Translations under genes and position numbers: made by a program
The notes under the pieces: generated by a model
Seen by the model: the letters and a program-made list of their open reading frames with translations, nothing else
The model's database searches: none
Told to the model about the DNA's origin: nothing
Assembly: GCA_000004985.1 (NCBI GenBank)
Contig: GG738848.1
Strand: one strand, 5' to 3'
Source: Naegleria gruberi
Taxonomy: Eukaryota
DNA: 64,000 bases
Part shown: positions 1,701 through 64,000 of the stretch, piece by piece
How positions within the stretch are numbered: position 1 is the stretch's first letter
How the letters are laid out: each line of letters starts with the position of its first letter

Positions 1701-3925
1701 ATGCAAGAACCTCCATCATCGTCATCAGAAGGAAGTGATAATTCATCTACATCAGCAAAACCGAAAGTCATTGAATTGGCTAATATTAAAATACAACATC
1801 AACGCCAACCTCATGTTGAAGTAGTGGAAAATTCACCTTTAAAAACACCAACAGTCAAATATAACGTCGACGATGAGGATAGTGATGATGAAGAAGTTGT
1901 ACAACAATCAAGAGGCAGAGTTGCCGAACATCAAAGTCTATTAAATGGGGAAACGGAACGTGAACATCTCGGAGTCACAAATCTAGATGCCTTCTTTCAA
2001 CAAGTTTATGTATACTTCTATGAAAAAGGCTTTTGGTGCATGTTGGTAGATAGATGTCTACGATTATGGTTTGTTTCGAATATTATTACATTGTTTATTT
2101 ACAATATTATTACAGTACTGTATTTTTCATGATGATATTCTCAACTTTCCTATTTGTATTTCTAAATTGGTATGATATGTGGCATTGTCAGGATGTTGCT
2201 TGTAAAACAGTTCCAGTTTTTCGTAAAAATGTTTGGACAATGAATGCCTTCCATATTGTTGTCCTCTTATTTGAATTCGTTGTTTGTTTTTATTGGATGT
2301 ATTTACTTGTAAAATATCTGAGGGATTTATTGGGAATGTTATCAATCAAACACTTTTTCAATACTGAACTTAATATAACTGAGAAGGATATTCAAACTAT
2401 TCAATGGGTTGAAGTTGTAGAAAAGATTATTGAATTCCAAAATAAGAAAAAGATTAATATTATCAAAAACGTAGACGAATTCGGTATGTATGATTGATTT
2501 TAAACAGTTTTACTGATTGTTATTTAATTAGATATTTTAAACCGTATTATGAGAAAAGAAAATTACTTGATATCATTCATCAATAAGGATGTTATGAATC
2601 TAACACTTCCATTCTCTCAGAAAACTTATCTCTCTGAAATTATTGTTTATAACTTGAGAATTGTTGTAGATAACATGTTCGATAGCGAATTCAAAATTAA
2701 TGAGGCCTTTGTAAAAAACCCAAATGCTCTCAGAGCTTTCTTTGTAAAATTGGGTCTCATTAATTTATTACTCGCACCATTTTTACTTATATATATTATT
2801 TTGTACACTTCATTTAAATACTTAGCCGTAAGTTTTCAGATTGTTTAGTTTAAATTATTTATCATTCAAAAGGAGCTCAAAAACGATCCAAAGAAAGCAC
2901 TTGGAAGAAGGTGGTCATTATATTCCACATTCAAATTCAGAGAGTATCATGAACTTGCTCATGAATATGAGAGAAGACTAAAGGAAGGCTATGGCCCATC
3001 TATTGATTATTTAAATCAATTCCCTAATGTCTTACTTTCTATTGTTGCTAATAGAGCAATGTTTTTTATATCAGCAATAGCCGGAGTAATAATTGTACTT
3101 TCATACTTGAATAACTCACTTACTCTTTATTTGACAGTATTTAATCAAAACTTATTGACTTGGTTGACAACTTTATTATTGGGTTGGGCATTTGCTAAGG
3201 GATTTGTAATTGACGAACATGCCGTTTTCAATCCAAAACAAAAGCTAGATGATGTTTGTGAAATTTTACACCACCACGATCTTAAATGGAAGGGTAAAGG
3301 TCACCATCACGATGTGAGAGATGACTTTGTTGCCCATTTCATTCCTAGCTATTCCTACTTCTTGAATGAAATTGTCAGTGTATTTGTAACACCTATTATC
3401 CTCATTATTTCATTACCAAGAAGTGCAGAGAGAATATCCTCCTTTGTTGATCAAATCACTGTTGATTATCATGGATTAGGACATATTTGTGGTCATGCTG
3501 CATTCAAATTTAATGAATTTGGTAATGATATGTACGGTAGTCAAACTCTTGGAGGTACCAAGCATGCTGCTTCTGAGCATGGTAAAATGGAGTTATCATA
3601 TCTCAGCTTTGTGAATAGATATCCAAACTACAAACCAAAGGATGACAATGGAGAAAAGGCATTTATCAATAACCTTAATCAATCTATTCTTGCAAAGAAG
3701 GAAACCATTAAGGAACAACAACAGCAAGTAGAGCAACCTCCTGTTCAACAACAAGCTGCCAAATTCTCTCCAGTTGTCATAGTGCAACCACCAAGAGAAA
3801 ATACTCTTCGTCCTCCTGTACAAAATGATCTCTCTGAGTCTAGACTTCTTTTCAATATGTTGGAAAGTCAATATCAAATTAGAATGGACCAATCTATGAA
3901 TCAGTCAACCTGGAGAAGAAAATAA
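1701..3925 (+). CDS. ATG9: Autophagy-related protein 9 (Atg9) homolog
   Basis: Exons 1701..2067, 2116..2483, 2532..2827 and 2873..3925. Introns are 48, 48 and 45 nt (GTTTGT/GTATGT/GTAAGT...AG) and all are frame-consistent. The motifs LDAFFQQVYVYFYEKGFWC, RIMRKENYLISFINK and RRWSLYSTFKFREYHELAHEYERRL match the conserved Atg9 core as I recall it. Confidence 0.88.
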
Positions 3926-3934
3926 ACAAATGAT

Positions 3935-4600
3935 TTATTCCATTAAGAAAATTCTGTTTGCAATATCATCAACAATCCAGTCAATACCCTCCGAAATACC
4001 TTCACCAGTTATGGCACTACACCTTTCAACATGAATGTGTCTTGTTGTCTTTGAAGACTTTTGTTCATAGAGGATAGATTCACCAGAGGTAACTACTGTT
4101 GTCTCTGTTGTTTGAGATAATTGTTCCAATCCAAGGAATTTAGCAATATCACTAACACTAAGGGCATTATCTAAATCGGATTTGTTAGCAAGGATCAATA
4201 AACTTGCACCTGCCAATTTTTCCTCTCCTAACAAGAGATTTAATTCTCTCTTACAATCTTCCAATCTGTCAGTATCGGCACTATCAATTACCCAAATCAA
4301 TCCATCTGTATTTTCAAAATAATTTCTCCAATAACTTCTGATTGATTTTTGACCTCCAATATCCCAGAAATTAACCTTAAATGTATTATTAGTTGGTGTT
4401 TGAGCTACATCTTTTGATGCATCCTTTTCATAATAAATTGTGTCAATATTAAATCCTAGTGTTGGAGAAATTTCATCAAGAGGTTGATTTTTCAGCTTTT
4501 TAACGATCGTTGTTTTTCCTGCGTTATCCAACCCGAGAATAAGTACTCTCATTTGTCTTTCCTGTTCACGGAGCTTTTTCAAAATACTCATAAGACCCAT
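3935..4600 (-). CDS. ARL2: Arf-like small GTPase, ARL2-type, with lineage-specific insertions
   Basis: Single exon. The N-terminus is MG. The P-loop is GLDNAGKTT. The switch II block [32 protein letters not shown] is near-identical to the ARL2 signature, and NKSD is present. Extra segments sit after the effector region and before the C-terminal helix. Confidence 0.88.
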
Positions 4601-4970
4601 TGTATTGTATTCGGAAGTGTATTAAAATGTGTACAAAATTGTGAGGAGCAAAGAAGGTGATATTCTTTCTTTTTTTTGATTTTGAAAATTGAAAAAGGCG
4701 CCAACACTACCTACAACAACTTTTCGAAGAAAATACAAAATACTGTGGAAGTGAGAACTACAATCGGTAGTAAGGAATATAATTTTGTAAACTTTAATAA
4801 GATATTAATATATTAATATTATAAATTTAATGGAACAATATCTAATATAATTTTTTTAAATTGTTATCCTTAAAATATCCACCTTCTCAATATTAAATAT
4901 TTTGTAATCCTTCCAATAATTATCATCATCACATTAAATATTTAATTCTAAATATCCGATAATCTATTTT

Positions 4971-44382: not shown

Positions 44383-44862
44383 CCACGATGGTTTTTCCCT
44401 CCGTCTTGTATTATTAATATGTATGCAATGATTATCATCAATAATATTTCTTTACATATTTCCGATCTAAATAATTAAAAAACATACTCCAAATTTACAA
44501 CAGGTCGATAATTATCTTGCTGCAGCTGCTCTGATGATGTACCGTTTGCGTTTGTTGAAGAATTTTCACCACTGCTAACATGATTAGTAGAAGTTGGACT
44601 TTGGTGCGTGGGCATTTTTTTGTTATTATTATTCAATTTAAACAAGTTTGGAATTTTTACAGCGCACAATGCAAAAATGAACTACAAACAAGAATGGTAC
44701 AAAAATCTCCATAGATGAATAGATTCCACAAATGCGGAGATGCTCCTAAGTAGGAGAACTAGCATAGTTACGCAGACTTCCTTAGTTTTCCTAAAGTTAA
44801 AAACTTGGCGGAGACATGCTGTGATGGATACAAATATTACACAATTTTTATTATTGACAATT

Positions 44863-51540: not shown

Positions 51541-51613
51541 GGGGTCTTGGCGCAGTCGGTAGCGCGTAGGTCTCATAATCCTAAGGTCGTGAGTTCGATC
51601 CTCACAGACCCCA
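51541..51613 (+). tRNA. tRNA-Met, elongator type (anticodon CAT), copy 3 of 3
   Basis: The sequence is ggggtcttggcgcagtcggtagcgcgtaggtctCATaatcctaaggtcgtgagttcgatcctcacagacccca. A T-run terminator follows immediately (tctttttt). Confidence 0.93.
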
Positions 51614-51937
51614 TCTTTTTTGCATCCTTTAATTTCCAACAATGAGTGGACAATAAGTCCATAATTACACAACTTTCAGGATAATCCTTAAAACATCAAC
51701 TTCAATCAGTGAAATATGTTAATAACCCTTAGGTCAACCTTGATGTATTTCTAAAACTGTCACTTCACTTTAGCATAGTACTTTTTAATGTATTTTGCGT
51801 TAAAATGAGGCGCAAGTGCAGATAGGAACACTATCTCAATCCCTCTTTCAACTCTTCTGCAAAATGAAATCTTGGGTTTAGTGATTTTCCAAAAACAAAT
51901 AGACGGATATGTCAGAAATTTGTTATTAATAATGTTA

Positions 51938-52009
51938 GGGACCATGGTCTAGTGGTATGATTTTTGCTTTGGGTGCGAGAGGCCGTGGGTTCGATTCCCA
52001 CTGGTCCCC
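51938..52009 (+). tRNA. tRNA-Pro (anticodon TGG)
   Basis: Acceptor stem gggacca/tggtccc, anticodon loop ttTGGgt, T loop gggttcgattccc. The sequence is close to canonical eukaryotic tRNA-Pro. Confidence 0.9.
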
Positions 52010-52102
52010 TTATCTTTTGTTTTAAAAGAAATCATTAAGGTACAGTTTTGCAAACCTCAGTAATATTTTTAGAACATTTCAATTCCAAAATTGTAAAATG
52101 TC

Positions 52103-52174
52103 TAGCAAATCTAGGTTTCGATCCTAGGACCTATGGGTTATGAGCCCATCGCGCTTCCGCTGCGCCAATTTGCT
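52103..52174 (-). tRNA. Initiator tRNA-Met (anticodon CAT)
   Basis: The reverse complement is agcaaattggcgcagcggaagcgcgatgggctCATaacccataggtcctaggatcgaaacctagatttgcta. It has an A1:U72 pair, three G:C pairs closing the anticodon stem, and an A-rich T loop (GATCGAAAC). These are all eukaryotic initiator hallmarks. Confidence 0.9.
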
Positions 52175-52332
52175 TTGCATTTCTTTTCTTAAAGTTTTTA
52201 TTCTAATTGATATTGGCCAAGTGATGAAAGTGAATTGAGGCAACATTAGCTTTTCACTTTGCAAAGATAAAATTTATTCAAGATTGGAAGAGAAATTTGT
52301 GGAATTATTCTATGAAGGAATTACAGTATTAT

Positions 52333-52971
52333 TTATTGTTGTCCTGAAACAGCTTTCCATGAAGGTCTTGATGAAATCTTTTCCCACCAAGCTTTAACAA
52401 GTGGACGATCCAACAATAAATTACCCAATCCAATAGCGAACAACAAGTTTCCATATGGTAAGTGATACAAATCGGCTAAGGTGAATTGATTTCCACCAAT
52501 GAATTCTTGTTTAGCCAACACTTTTTCATAGGCATCCAAATTGAGTGCTAACTTTTCACTCAATTGTTTGACACGAGCTTCATCAGCAGCTCCATATCCC
52601 ATCATTCCCTTAAATAACTTTTCGAAAACTAAACCAGAAGCATTTGAATCAAAGTAAGCAGTTTCAATGGAAGCACCTTGTTCGAATAGACCCAAAGCTT
52701 TGAGCTCAGTTGGAATGAGTTCAGTTCCTTGGCTCTTATGTTTGGCTTCCAAGTAACGACAGATAGCACGAGATTCATAAATCAAGAACCCATCATCTTC
52801 CAAGACTGGAATGACACCAAATGGATGCTTTTCCAAGTAGGATGGTGACTTGTGTTCTCCCTTCATTAAATCAACAGGAACAAGTTCATATTCTAAACCT
52901 TTCTCCTTGATTGTGGTCAAAACACGTTGAACGCAAGTTGATTGAGCAGCACCATAAATTTTGTAGACCAT
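52333..52971 (-). CDS. Glutathione S-transferase
   Basis: The computed ORF extends to 53052, but a plausible ATG at 52971 gives MVYKIYGAAQSTCVQRVLTT. The GST N-terminal domain includes HPFGVIPVLEDDGFLIYESRAICRYL, and the C-terminal domain includes LADLYHLPY. Confidence 0.88.
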   Translation of the reverse strand: MVYKIYGAAQSTCVQRVLTTIKEKGLEYELVPVDLMKGEHKSPSYLEKHPFGVIPVLEDDGFLIYESRAICRYLEAKHKSQGTELIPTELKALGLFEQGASIETAYFDSNASGLVFEKLFKGMMGYGAADEARVKQLSEKLALNLDAYEKVLAKQEFIGGNQFTLADLYHLPYGNLLFAIGLGNLLLDRPLVKAWWEKISSRPSWKAVSGQQ

Positions 52972-53307
52972 TTTGTTATTTGTTATTTGTAATAATACAG
53001 TAAAGTTGTTTTTTTGTGATTGAAAATGCATAATCATTAGTGTGAATGCCATTTATGGTGGATTCTGTATCCGAAACCAAAGCGCTGTCGTGAGCACTAA
53101 TTATTGATCTGTGGAATTTGCGCAAGAAATGAGTGCCATTTCATCCTCTTGGATACTTCAAAATCATGTGAGAGAATGATATTTGTACAATTTTAAATAT
53201 TAAGAATACGAATCAACGGATTGAGTAATAGCATACACCCATTTCCTTAAATTCTAAAACATGTACTGGAATAAATGATTTATCTTACTTATTTCAAAGC
53301 AGTTGAT

Positions 53308-53425
53308 GGCTACGGCCATATCACGATGAATGCACCTCATCCCGTCCGATTTGAGAAGTTAAGCATCGTCGAGCCACATCAGTACTGAGGTTGGAGACAA
53401 CTTGGGAACCTGTGGTGCTGTAGTC
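53308..53425 (+). rRNA. 5S ribosomal RNA
   Basis: ggctacggccatatcac...gaagttaagc...agtactgagg...gggaacc..gtgctgtagtc matches the 5S consensus. Helix I pairs GGCUACGGC with GCUGUAGUC. A TTTT terminator follows at 53426. The ends are accurate to about 2 nt. Confidence 0.9.
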
Positions 53426-53707
53426 TTTTGTCACTTATTTGTTTTATTCATTAGTTTAAAGTTGCCACCTTAATTGAAAGTCTAGTTTGCTTCTCACATT
53501 CTTTCCAATATTCCAAACACCTTCTTTGGATTCAATCATTGACTGAACTGCTCCATCATAAAAATGATTTATTAAGATTCGCTACATGTTCAATATCAAT
53601 AGTTGAACAAGGCATTAAAATTTATTAAAATACCACAAACATTTTGTCATTCTTCACTCCACAACCAACAGAATAAATACTGTGTGCCTTATGCAATTCT
53701 CAAAACC

Positions 53708-53895
53708 ATCTTTCTCGGCCAATTGGCTTTGATCGAGTGTAGTATCTGTTCTTTTCAGTTTAATAGCTGAAAGCAGCTCACGGGTTGCATCTACTATTAA
53801 CTCAATTTTTTGTAGGGATCAGGGTTTGAGCTTAATTGCTCACTTTGATTTGGTTTCAATCAGACATTGCACAAACCGTCAGATTAGGAGCCACC
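53708..53895 (+). ncRNA. U2 spliceosomal snRNA
   Basis: The 5' part atctttctcggccaattggctttgatcgagtgtagtatctgttcttttcagtttaatagctgaaag matches conserved U2, including the branch-point recognition GUGUAGUA. The Sm site is AAUUUUUUG at about 53803. The 3' end is approximate. Confidence 0.85.
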
Positions 53896-54290
53896 TAACT
53901 CTTTTAATTAATTGAAAATCATTGTTCAAATACAATCTCAATGAGTTTTTCCGAGCATGTATGATGATAAATTAAACATGATGAGAGAGACTCACAACAG
54001 TCCATCAACCACTTAAGCAAGATGAAGTTTAGGAAGTCCAACACAAGAAATTGATGTTTTGGGTTTGTGTGAAAATAAACTACTATATATTATAGTTGTA
54101 AATTGCCAAGCCGTTTCAGCAATTTTTTAAAAAGGTAACACGTGGTTCTCATCATCATTTTTAATATTCTTGATGAATACTCAATATTATTGGACAATCT
54201 TTTCAGAATAGATAATAGACATGTTGGAGAGGATAATGATATAAAATAAGTAACATGGCATAAAAAGTTGAGTGATAAAGAAGCAAAAGT

Positions 54291-54371
54291 TGCAGAAGGT
54301 GGGATTTGAACCCACGAAGCTTGCGCAGTAGAACTTGAGTCTACCCCCTTTGACCACTCGGGAACCCCTGC
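54291..54371 (-). tRNA. tRNA-Leu (anticodon CAA), class II with long variable arm, no intron
   Basis: The reverse complement is gcaggggttcccgagtggtcaaagggggtagactCAAgttctactgcgcaagcttcgtgggttcaaatcccaccttctgca. Confidence 0.88.
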
Positions 54372-61460: not shown

Positions 61461-62341
61461 TTATTGTTGATGACTTCCGAAGAGAGATTGTGCTCTGGTG
61501 AGTGTCTTGCTCCAAAATAAATTTCTTAATAAACTTCCTTGATTGTCTGATGAAGTGGAAGATGAATCACTTGTCTTGACTGTTGAATTTTTGTCTACAT
61601 TATGATTAGATGCAGTATCAGAAGGAGTTGCAGTAGATTCAGAAGGAGTGACATATTCTTGGCTACTTTCATATTTTGAAAGAATTTTCAATAATTGTTG
61701 AGTTGATTTTGGAGAAATCTTATTTGGAAATTGAATATTGAAATAAATGACCAAATCCCCAAATGTTTCATCCTCTGTTGGCATTCCTTCTCCTTTAACA
61801 CTTTTCAAATGAATTAGAATATTCCTTCATATGAAATCTCTTAAACTTACACATGAAAATAATCTGGAGTAATTAAATTTTGACTATTATCAATTCTAAC
61901 ATCCAACTTTTTCACACCAAATAAATCAATTTGAAAAGAAACCAATTCACTTGTCAATGCTTCTTTCAGAGTAAGAGTATGAACATATTTCAAATGCTCC
62001 TGATCAGGTCCAACTCTCTCCAATTTTAAATCCTTTTCCTTCACTGGTTCCACAATTACAACCAAATCACCAGTTGATGAATTTCTATCCTTTACCTGAT
62101 CATCAAATTCACCTTCTCCTTCAAAAACAATTCTTTTCCGATATTTAAATCCTCTGGGAATTTGTATTTCCCTCTCCACCAACATGGACATGGATTGTCC
62201 TTGAATTCTAACCTTCCGAATGAAGGTAATTAATTTGTTACAACCAAAATATAATTCCCTGAGAGTACATGGGAGAGAAACATAGATATCCAACACAGAA
62301 TTGGTTCGGAATATTGGTGATTCTTCTATTTTAAAATTCAT
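61461..62341 (-). CDS. DnaJ/Hsp40 C-terminal substrate-binding domain protein without a detectable J domain
   Basis: Exons 61851..62341 and 61461..61800. The intron 61801..61850 is 50 nt (GTAAGT..AAG), with phase 2 preserved. CTD motifs are LDIYVSLPCTLRELYFGCNKLITFIRK, GDLVVIVEPVKEKDLKLER, KGEGMP and FGDLVIYFNIQFP. The ATG at 62341 lies only about 155-210 bp downstream of the neighbouring gene's stop codon, leaving no room for a J-domain exon. Confidence 0.7.
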
Positions 62342-62497: not shown

Positions 62498-63177
62498 TCA
62501 ATCATTTTCCATCAACCACTTTAACAAGGTTTCCAAAACCTGAACGTATATCAGAAACTTACCTTAAATGGGTCAATCCAGCTTTCCTTTCTAGAAATAG
62601 TACAATAAAACAATTTCATTGACCTTTCCAATTCTGGGTTGTTAAAACGATCTCCCAAGTTCTCCTCAATTTCCAATACTTTCTCTAAATTTCCAACTTG
62701 TCCATCCTTTAATTTATCGCAATGAGTTCCTAAGATAACTATTGGAACATTTTTCACTTGCTCAATTTCCATAATTTCTTTTAAGGTTTCCTTTGCTTCC
62801 TCAAACCTATTTGTGTCTGCACAATCAACACAATAAACAATTCCACTCAAAACATTTGAATGCAAATCAGTAAGGTTATTTTTCCATTCTTTTTTTCCAC
62901 AGGTATATCCACCATAATCATAAAGATGCTTAATTCGGACATGTTCAGTTTCGATCTGTGCTTGTTCTGCATTAATCATTTTCAATAAATTTGTTTTATC
63001 ATATTCGGAATCAATTAACAATTAATTATAGAAAATTTAAGAAACTCTACCATAAACAATAGTTGGAGGATGGACAGAAATTCTGTTATTGAGCAGATAG
63101 CCAAAGATTGTTGATTTTCCTGAATTCGTTGGTCCGAGGAGGATAACATGATCGAGAAAGGAATGAGAGAGACCCAT
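62498..63177 (-). CDS. Arf-like small GTPase with atypical G4 motif; unusual introns
   Basis: ATG at 63177 gives MGLSHSF (Gly2). The P-loop is LLGPTNSGKST. Exon 1 is 63051..63177. An 84-nt intron, 62967..63050, has a non-consensus GTAGAG donor and a CAG acceptor. Using it restores Arf-like spacing (PPTIVY|EQAQIETEHVRIKHLYDYGG). Exon 2 is 62563..62966 and carries THCD in place of NKxD. A GTAAGT donor sits exactly at 62562, and a candidate 23-nt intron 62540..62562 would add VLETLLKWLMEND* (ending at 62498). Without that splice the CDS ends at 62551. Confidence 0.65.
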
Positions 63178-63398
63178 TTTTTTTAATGTTGTAAATAAGG
63201 TCCAACTGTTTACAATATATGATGTATTGAGATAGAGCTTATTCTCTAAAAGTATTCTTAGTGGTTTTTTGAATCGCCTGTTTGAACCAGATTTGTTTCT
63301 TCGTACAGGTAAGTATGAAGGACAAGTTGAAGGAGTGGCTATGAGGAAGGGCCTCAACCAGTTGTATTGTCCTAACAGTTAGAGATATTCATTTCAAA

Positions 63399-64000
63399 TT
63401 AATGAATAAAATCAAGAATAATGTCATCTAATCGTCTCATTTGTAAAGCTCCATGTAAATTATGTTTAAAATCATTATTTGGAATTACAAAAAGAGGTAA
63501 ATCAAACCTGTGAGTAATAAAACACTTTCTAGGTGAATTAGCTCCTATGGCTAAACAATTCAGTAATTCCTTCATATCAGAATCATGGGATGTATTCACA
63601 ATATGATATTCATATGTTCTATTTGGATAGCTGTTGTCTTGGTTATTTATCATTACTTTCAATGTCTCTGTAATGAGAGAATTGATGATTAGTGCACAGT
63701 CTTTCTTTAATCTATTCAATTCTTTACGAATATTTGGATCTGTATTTCCTTGATATTTAACACCCAATTTTATCCTTTCCTGGAAAACATCCGGGTGAGT
63801 AAATATCAAAATTATTCTATAGCAAGTAAATTTAGAAAGTCTTTTACATTCATTGAAATAGGTATTCAAATATTGAAGATTATCATAATCAGATAACGAA
63901 AATGAGACTGCAACCACATCAGCCCAAGTGTCACAAGAAAAACAATTTGCAAAAAGCTCAAAACTCAATTGATTGGTTTTGTAAGGATAATTGCTAGTTT
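63399..64000 (-). CDS. G-alpha-like protein, degenerate nucleotide-binding motifs; 5' part lies outside the window
   Basis: The frame stays open to the window edge. WADVVAVSFSLSDYD, RIILIFTHPDVFQERIK and YEYHIVNTSHDSD parallel the G-alpha blocks (KW..CF..V.AIIF...LSEYD, ILFLNKKDLFEEKI, H.TCATDT). However, DVGGQ and NKxD are not conserved. Confidence 0.55.
   Translation of the reverse strand, partial: TSNYPYKTNQLSFELFANCFSCDTWADVVAVSFSLSDYDNLQYLNTYFNECKRLSKFTCYRIILIFTHPDVFQERIKLGVKYQGNTDPNIRKELNRLKKDCALIINSLITETLKVMINNQDNSYPNRTYEYHIVNTSHDSDMKELLNCLAIGANSPRKCFITHRFDLPLFVIPNNDFKHNLHGALQMRRLDDIILDFIH

Follow-up and report, generated by a model that had tools for sequence, protein, structure and literature searches.

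The Sar1-family GTPase gene NgrSar1d of Naegleria gruberi: a corrected model with a probable GTAGAG donor in the first intron and, most likely, a 44-nt rather than a 23-nt second intron

The canonical Sar1 proteins (COPII GTPases: human SAR1A/B, yeast Sar1p and Naegleria gruberi NgrSar1a) have a G-domain fold signature in common with NgrSar1d, the subject of this report. The shared elements are a GxxNxGK[ST]T P-loop, the PT of switch I, DxGG, a C[ST][IV] G5 motif and a C-terminal F-x-W-L followed by a short tail. NgrSar1d (XP_002682158.1) is one of four N. gruberi Sar1 paralogues and was placed in Sar1 by phylogeny, and N. gruberi was rated as having no SarB (Vargová et al. 2021, PMC8358228). 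The curated NgrSar1d sequence reads …PPTIVYEQAQIETEH… and terminates …DPFKVSF (PMC8358228). In that published form the N-terminus is open via an upstream ORF (LLGQYNW…) and the end is …KVSF, whereas the model presented here starts MGLSHS and ends …FKWLMEND.

The window analysed here is a stretch of 64,000 nt of N. gruberi DNA, from contig GG738848.1 of assembly GCA_000004985.1. On its minus strand, a gene model of three exons and 183 residues was obtained (Table 1), which quite likely describes a divergent Sar1-family small GTPase of N. gruberi. The locus is NgrSar1d, already catalogued, and the outcome is a correction of annotation, not new biology; only the improved gene model, in which start and C-terminus are now defined, is new here. 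Exon 1 starts MGLSHSFLDH, with its ATG in an A-rich context, and reads MGLSHSFLDHVILLGPTNSGKST…PPTIVY before ATG/GTAGAG at 63050. Exon 2 translates from 62966 as EQAQIETEHVRIKHLYDYGG… up to …WIDPFK, with GTAAGT immediately after at 62562, and it aligns to SAR1 without gaps except for small indels.

Table 1 Coordinates of the NgrSar1d model, of the competing splice junctions and of other features in the window. Scores are in bits (own Sar1 profile; Pfam Arf).
Feature	Position	Strand	Details
Exon 1	63177..63051	-	ATG at 63177, first in-frame ATG; ends in phase 1
P-loop GPTNSGKST (exon 1)	63109..63135	-	
Switch I PPT (exon 1)	63061..63069	-	
Intron 1 (probable)	63050..62967	-	84 nt; donor GTAGAG(T), acceptor ATGCAG (GCAG); 141.1; 89.5
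Alternative intron 1 junction	63050/62961	-	90 nt; 134.5; 84.2
Alternative intron 1 junction	63045/62956	-	90 nt; 133.1; 83.0
Alternative intron 1 junction	63057/62956	-	102 nt; 130.9; 81.3
Exon 2	62966..62563	-	interswitch region; ends …WIDPFK, phase 0
DYGG (exon 2)	62908..62919	-	
THCD, for NKxD (exon 2)	62716..62727	-	
CTIS, G5 (exon 2)	62593..62604	-	
Intron 2 (as modelled)	62562..62519	-	44 nt; donor GTAAGT, acceptor TTAAAG
Proximal TTCAG	62544..62540	-	acceptor of the proposed 23-nt intron; in this model an unused AG within intron 2
Exon 3 (as modelled)	62518..62498	-	WLMEND plus TGA (62500..62498)
Open frame upstream of the ATG	63178..63378	-	66 codons
ATG9 homologue intron	2828..2872	+	45 nt; donor GTAAGTT, acceptor AAG
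DnaJ_C gene intron	61850..61801	-	50 nt; donor GTAAGTT, acceptor AAG
Candidate 38-nt intron	44487..44450	-	GTATGT…GTAAAG
DnaJ_C gene	61464..62341	-	directly downstream of NgrSar1d
G-alpha-like gene	63399..64000	-	just upstream of NgrSar1d; cut by the window end
Second Arf-family gene	3938..4621	-	single exon
Small RNA gene cluster	51541..54371		includes four tRNAs
5S rRNA (in cluster)	53308..53426		
U2 snRNA (in cluster)	53706..53899		
tRNA genes with identical scores	23003, 48226, 51541		three genes

A Sar1 protein is expected to fall within the Arf superfamily. The spliced product matches Pfam Arf (PF00025) with E = 1.4e-23; its score of 89.5 bits clears the 22.3-bit cut-off, and the alignment spans positions 16-173 of the 174 in the profile. 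In the PDB, SAR1 takes all of the first 17 places (best SAR1A/B, E = 6e-18, residues 10-179) and Arl3 follows (E = 3e-10), so that among Arf-family members in these matches the Sar1 subfamily is the nearest. The first-pass annotation had described an Arf-like GTPase gene here; its sequence features and coordinates are all correct on the minus strand, and its assignment to the Arf superfamily is borne out and narrowed to Sar1-like. Elsewhere in the window, the product of a ribosomal protein S16 gene matches the N. gruberi protein at 100% identity.

Close relatives of NgrSar1d are few. A word-indexed search returned one cluster only, whose two members are a metagenome ORF and XP_002682158.1. The ORF lies on a metagenome contig (ENA ERZ929261, PRJEB11402) with 98% DNA identity to the locus. 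Beyond this cluster, no protein above 37% identity turned up among 1.84 billion cluster representatives scanned in full with HMMER, and so the scan supplied no intron-less orthologue by which the junctions could be settled. No spliced or related copies were detected in a scan of JGI metagenomes and metatranscriptomes; the protein collection contained no transcript-derived protein for NgrSar1d, and no exact match to the 183-, 190-, 180- or 142-residue variants. The metagenome contig is identical to the locus across both introns and therefore cannot discriminate between models of the 3′ end.

The deposited model, XP_002682158.1 (NAEGRDRAFT_62774, 372 aa), begins MINAEQ within intron 1, and hence has no P-loop. 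It joins the donor at 62562 to 62212, 350 nt on, in the neighbouring DnaJ_C gene, and is a chimera wrongly fused to that gene. A genuine GTPase-DnaJ_C fusion starting at MINAEQ is extremely unlikely. It is the model on deposit, it uses the same 62562 donor as our model, and its AAG acceptor is in frame. Against this, besides starting within intron 1, it removes as intron a DnaJ_C segment, LPCTLRELYFGCNKLITFIRK, with an ATG of its own in front and an alignment to DNAJB13 residues 144-165. It also has no Sar1 C-terminal WL, and it has already been replaced by curators (PMC8358228). What the DnaJ_C gene itself encodes is limited to the C-terminal domains of an Hsp40 resembling DNAJB13 / radial spoke protein 16; its alignment begins at DNAJB13 residue 144, and the stretch between the gene and NgrSar1d encodes no J domain. 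On the other side of NgrSar1d, the G-alpha-like gene ends …RRLDDIILDFIH, a few residues short of the typical G-alpha C-terminus.

Within the shared fold, NgrSar1d departs from Sar1 at several conserved positions. In its DYGGY motif, Tyr stands in the place of the catalytic His of Sar1 (DLGGH). At residues 123-126, THCD replaces NKxD, keeping the Asp alone of the G4 consensus (N123 K124). The Walker B aromatic residue is Tyr, as opposed to Phe in Sar1; SarB, an ancient Sar1-like paralogue, has Trp at this place (hhhW-DxGG), and NgrSar1d (LYDYGG) does not share it. With Tyr for the catalytic His and THCD for NKxD, NgrSar1d is probably an atypical or slow GTPase. In the related metagenome contig, a 12-nt in-frame deletion near contig position 1590 (window 62875..62886) removes WKNN from switch II, including the conserved Trp of the RxxWxxY motif. 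The sequence of NgrSar1d is possibly under relaxed constraint.

Splicing of intron 1 is expected to bring the P-loop and DYGG exons together in frame. All GT/GC…AG pairs that do so without a stop codon were enumerated, which gave 10 junctions, and each was scored with our own Sar1 profile (84 relatives) and with Pfam Arf. The 84-nt intron proposed in the first-pass annotation (63050/62967) ranks highest in both, leading by 6.6 bits in the Sar1 profile and by 5.3 bits in Pfam Arf. The curated sequence has the same exon 1/2 junction (…PPTIVY/EQAQIETEH…), as well as the same exon 2 (PMC8358228). We conclude that the first intron probably does use the GTAGAG donor. Placement of intron 1 elsewhere, from GTTTCT (63045) or GTTTAT (63057) to the CAG at 62956 or from GTAGAG to the AAG at 62961, is unlikely, although every one of these junctions is in frame and stop-free. 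The GTTTNT donors resemble the local GTTTGT class, and the P-loop-to-DxxG spacing becomes Sar1 minus 1, compared with Sar1 plus 1. For the two 90-nt alternatives this spacing is only one indel away, and they fall behind by 6.6-8 bits (Sar1 profile) and 5.3-6.5 bits (Pfam Arf). However, across the alternatives the deficit reaches 10 and 8.2 bits, respectively, and they must pass over the first CAG after the TGATTAAT motif. In addition, no U1 pairing centred on the donor at 63057 was found with RNAduplex (the test string for 63045 reproduced the 63050 duplex), and the curated NgrSar1d agrees with 63050/62967 and not with these junctions (PMC8358228).

The GTAGAG donor is unlike the others of the window, as had been remarked: the mappable ORF-bridging introns use GTAAGT, GTATGT or GTTTGT, and a scan of the window gave no further clear case of a non-consensus donor bridging two long ORFs. 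For intron 1 a non-consensus donor is unavoidable, because none of the available donors has G at +5. A U12-type intron was considered and rejected, GTAGAG being unlike /RTATCCTT. Recognition of such a donor may nevertheless be possible through a bulge. Using the conserved 5′ end of U1, which was assumed for N. gruberi, RNAduplex predicts that GUAGAGU forms 7 bp with a 1-nt bulge at +3/+4, at -5.4 kcal/mol; the homology-verified or consensus donors of the window give -4.5 to -7.0 kcal/mol. The weak ATG/GTAGAGT donor would thus pair with U1 as GTAAGT does, with one bulged base at +3/+4, and would still be recognised; since the Naegleria U1 sequence is assumed, we infer this mechanism.

Bulge-register 5′ splice sites were reportedly described by Roca et al. 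in 2012. These sites have no +5G in the canonical register, and the same is true of the GTAGAG donor. In human donors, registers with one bulged base at +3 to +5 have been established experimentally (Tan et al. 2016, PMC4856993). Those experiments were in human cells only, whereas the pairing of the NgrSar1d donor is a prediction. Relaxed constraint on the gene, if real, would fit the toleration of a weak intron 1 donor.

At the 3′ end, exon 2 runs directly into GTAAGT at 62562, and a TTCAG ending at 62540, 23 nt on, opens an in-frame tail, VLETLLKWLMEND, closed by TGA at 62500..62498. Both features were noted in the first-pass annotation, which proposed a 23-nt intron between them. A second in-frame acceptor, which it missed, is the TTAAAG ending at 62519, 21 nt beyond 62540. 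Use of this acceptor with the same donor gives a 44-nt intron and a protein ending …SWIDPFKWLMEND (…DPFKWLMEND), while the 23-nt version is predicted to end …DPFKVLETLLKWLMEND. The two versions and retention of the intron were compared with three profiles. A profile trained on a set of relatives chosen with the Trp gives 136.9 (44-nt), 128.5 (23-nt) and 126.7 (retained); one trained on a set chosen by length only, regardless of the Trp, gives 141.1, 135.8 and 132.3; and Pfam Arf gives 89.5, 83.7 and 82.6. The 44-nt version therefore leads the 23-nt version by 5.3 to 8.4 bits in our own profiles and by 5.8 bits in Pfam Arf, and it is the only model whose alignment extends to Pfam Arf position 173 of 174. 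This suggests that the proposed 23-nt intron is most likely a normal 44-nt one.

Sar1 C-termini have the form …G-[FIL]-x-W-L plus 3-6 residues, as in the human protein (GEGFRWLSQYID) and in the match P0012 (CIDPFIWLGSQI). The N. gruberi paralogues end GEGFQWLSSKF and TESIEWLVSKIK (…IEWLVSKIK), that is, xWL plus 4-5 residues. Among the three versions, only the 44-nt model ends in F-x-W-L plus 3-6 residues (FKWLMEND); with 53 relatives aligned, its Trp178 occupies a column where at least 90% of the residues are Trp. The C-terminal LxxWL helix that had been cited for the 23-nt intron is common to the 23-nt and 44-nt versions; all that the former adds is a 7-residue insert. Splicing from the 62562 donor is needed to regain the Trp-Leu of the family. 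When the downstream 117 nt were shuffled 200,000 times, an AG with Trp-Leu and a short tail in phase behind it arose in 0.2% of cases, which indicates that splicing into the Trp-Leu frame is not a coincidence. As an independent assembly has the identical sequence, a frameshift from sequencing error at the 3′ end was likewise rejected.

Intron lengths in the window provide a local reference. The ORF-bridging introns measure 43, 45, 45, 47, 48, 50, 52, 52, 54, 54, 57, 84, 101 and 201 nt, and the shortest that could be checked by homology is 43 nt. The 84-nt and 44-nt introns lie within this local range (at least 43 nt, with GT…AG ends), and the 23-nt candidate lies outside it. A candidate 38-nt intron, for which an 83-nt alternative exists, would be the shortest of the window if real. 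Intron 2 agrees in length and in its AAG acceptor with three introns of the window verified by homology (43, 45 and 50 nt). The 43-nt intron, in a leucyl aminopeptidase gene, has an AAG acceptor, and its LCE/NMPS junction is gapless against the bovine enzyme. The other two skip an earlier AG. In the ATG9 homologue, use of an in-frame TAG at 21 nt would insert FKLFIIQK, exactly an 8-residue gap relative to the ATG9 chain 7d0i_B of the PDB and human ATG9A, and the comparison shows that this TAG is passed over for the AAG at 45 nt. In the DnaJ_C gene, an in-frame AAG at 26 nt would insert 8 residues, a gap relative to DNAJB13, and the alignment likewise shows that it is skipped for the AAG at 50 nt. 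Intron 2 would then be one of the ordinary short introns of Naegleria, running from a consensus GTAAGT donor to an AAG acceptor, and the CAG at 23 nt would be too near the donor for use and would be skipped, as are the similar AGs in the neighbouring genes.

Splicing of a 23-nt spliceosomal intron (62562..62540, GTAAGT…TTCAG), whether as the sole form or together with the 44-nt one through alternative 3′ splice sites, is very unlikely. Tiny spliceosomal introns do exist (~25 nt in Paramecium, 18-21 nt in the Bigelowiella nucleomorph and from 23 nt in Encephalitozoon), and in those genomes they are the norm. The proposed intron resembles them in its 23-nt length; it differs in its setting, a window in which the minimum is 43 nt, or roughly twice as long, and in which AGs at 21-26 nt are skipped. 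A search for a paper giving the genome-wide intron length distribution of N. gruberi found none. The 23-nt version is in frame without stops, it scores slightly higher than intron retention, and its extra heptad, VLETLLK, preserves the hydrophobic spacing of the helix. However, we estimate from base composition that chance alone would leave 21 nt in frame and free of stops in about one case in five. The 7-residue insert is found in no homologue, the version places Val on the conserved Trp column and extends the C-terminus 7 residues past that of the homologues, and it scores 5-8 bits below the 44-nt model in three profiles.

Intron 2 has a single good branch-point-like motif, CTGAT, placed 11 nt before the proximal CAG. 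Length limits aside, this spacing of branch point and acceptor is a good one and suits the 23-nt intron, and there is no YTRAY motif between the acceptors at 62540 and 62519. AAG is also usually a weaker acceptor than CAG, which counts against the 44-nt intron. On the other hand, where local introns have a YTRAY motif 9-20 nt from the acceptor, its A lies 32-37 nt from the donor, whereas that of the intron 2 CTGAT lies at 12 nt. Several local introns, including the homology-verified one of ATG9, have no YTRAY at all, and in the N. gruberi genome branch-point motifs are too degenerate to decide between acceptors. If real, the 23-nt intron would be much shorter than any spliceosomal intron so far known from a heterolobosean, and the Naegleria spliceosome would be workable at a donor-to-branch-point distance of ~12 nt.

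It is also conceivable that no 3′ intron is removed and that the protein ends …WIDPFKVSF. This is the simplest reading, used both in the curation (PMC8358228) and by the metagenome gene caller, and the changes that hint at relaxed constraint (Tyr for His, THCD for NKxD, and WKNN deleted in the relative) lend it some plausibility. We nevertheless regard it as highly improbable. Retention loses the nearly invariant Trp and shortens the last helix, it has the lowest score in all three profiles, and it leaves a perfect GTAAGT exactly where homology stops, with the in-phase Trp-Leu and short tail downstream as mere coincidence.

Sar1 proteins are expected to begin with an N-terminal amphipathic helix of ~20 residues. 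In NgrSar1d, only MGLSHSFLD precedes strand 1 (9 residues, compared with ~22 in Sar1), and such a helix is lacking. Upstream of the ATG at 63177, the frame of the gene stays open for 66 codons that include no ATG, an event with a chance of ~0.6%, and this is presumably why the published N-terminus was left open. In the metagenome contig, however, there is a 7-nt deletion, and an in-frame TAA stands three codons upstream of the equivalent of this ATG. The upstream open frame is therefore taken as non-coding and the protein as starting at MGLSHS. The last 17 upstream codons (YIVNSWTLFTTLKKMGL) weakly resemble the Sar1 N-terminal helix (MFLFDWFWSILSALGL), and the stretch may be what remains of an N-terminus that was lost. 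The MG…S start is an Arf-like myristoylation pattern, unlike Sar1. MGLSHSF fits the N-myristoylation pattern of PROSITE PS00008, G-{EDRKHPFYW}-x(2)-[STAGCN]-{P} (a pattern match only), and on this basis the NgrSar1d protein may be myristoylated. NgrSar1d had been rated as 'no Gly2' (PMC8358228), a consequence of a published model without a defined start.

For genome scanning, these results mean that in N. gruberi an in-frame AG 20-26 nt past GTAAGT is a decoy and that an AAG at 43-50 nt is the normal acceptor; apparent ultra-short introns should be compared with the next AAG. The published curated NgrSar1d is still without a defined start and without the conserved C-terminal Trp-Leu, and the corrected model matters to studies of Naegleria's four Sar1 paralogues.
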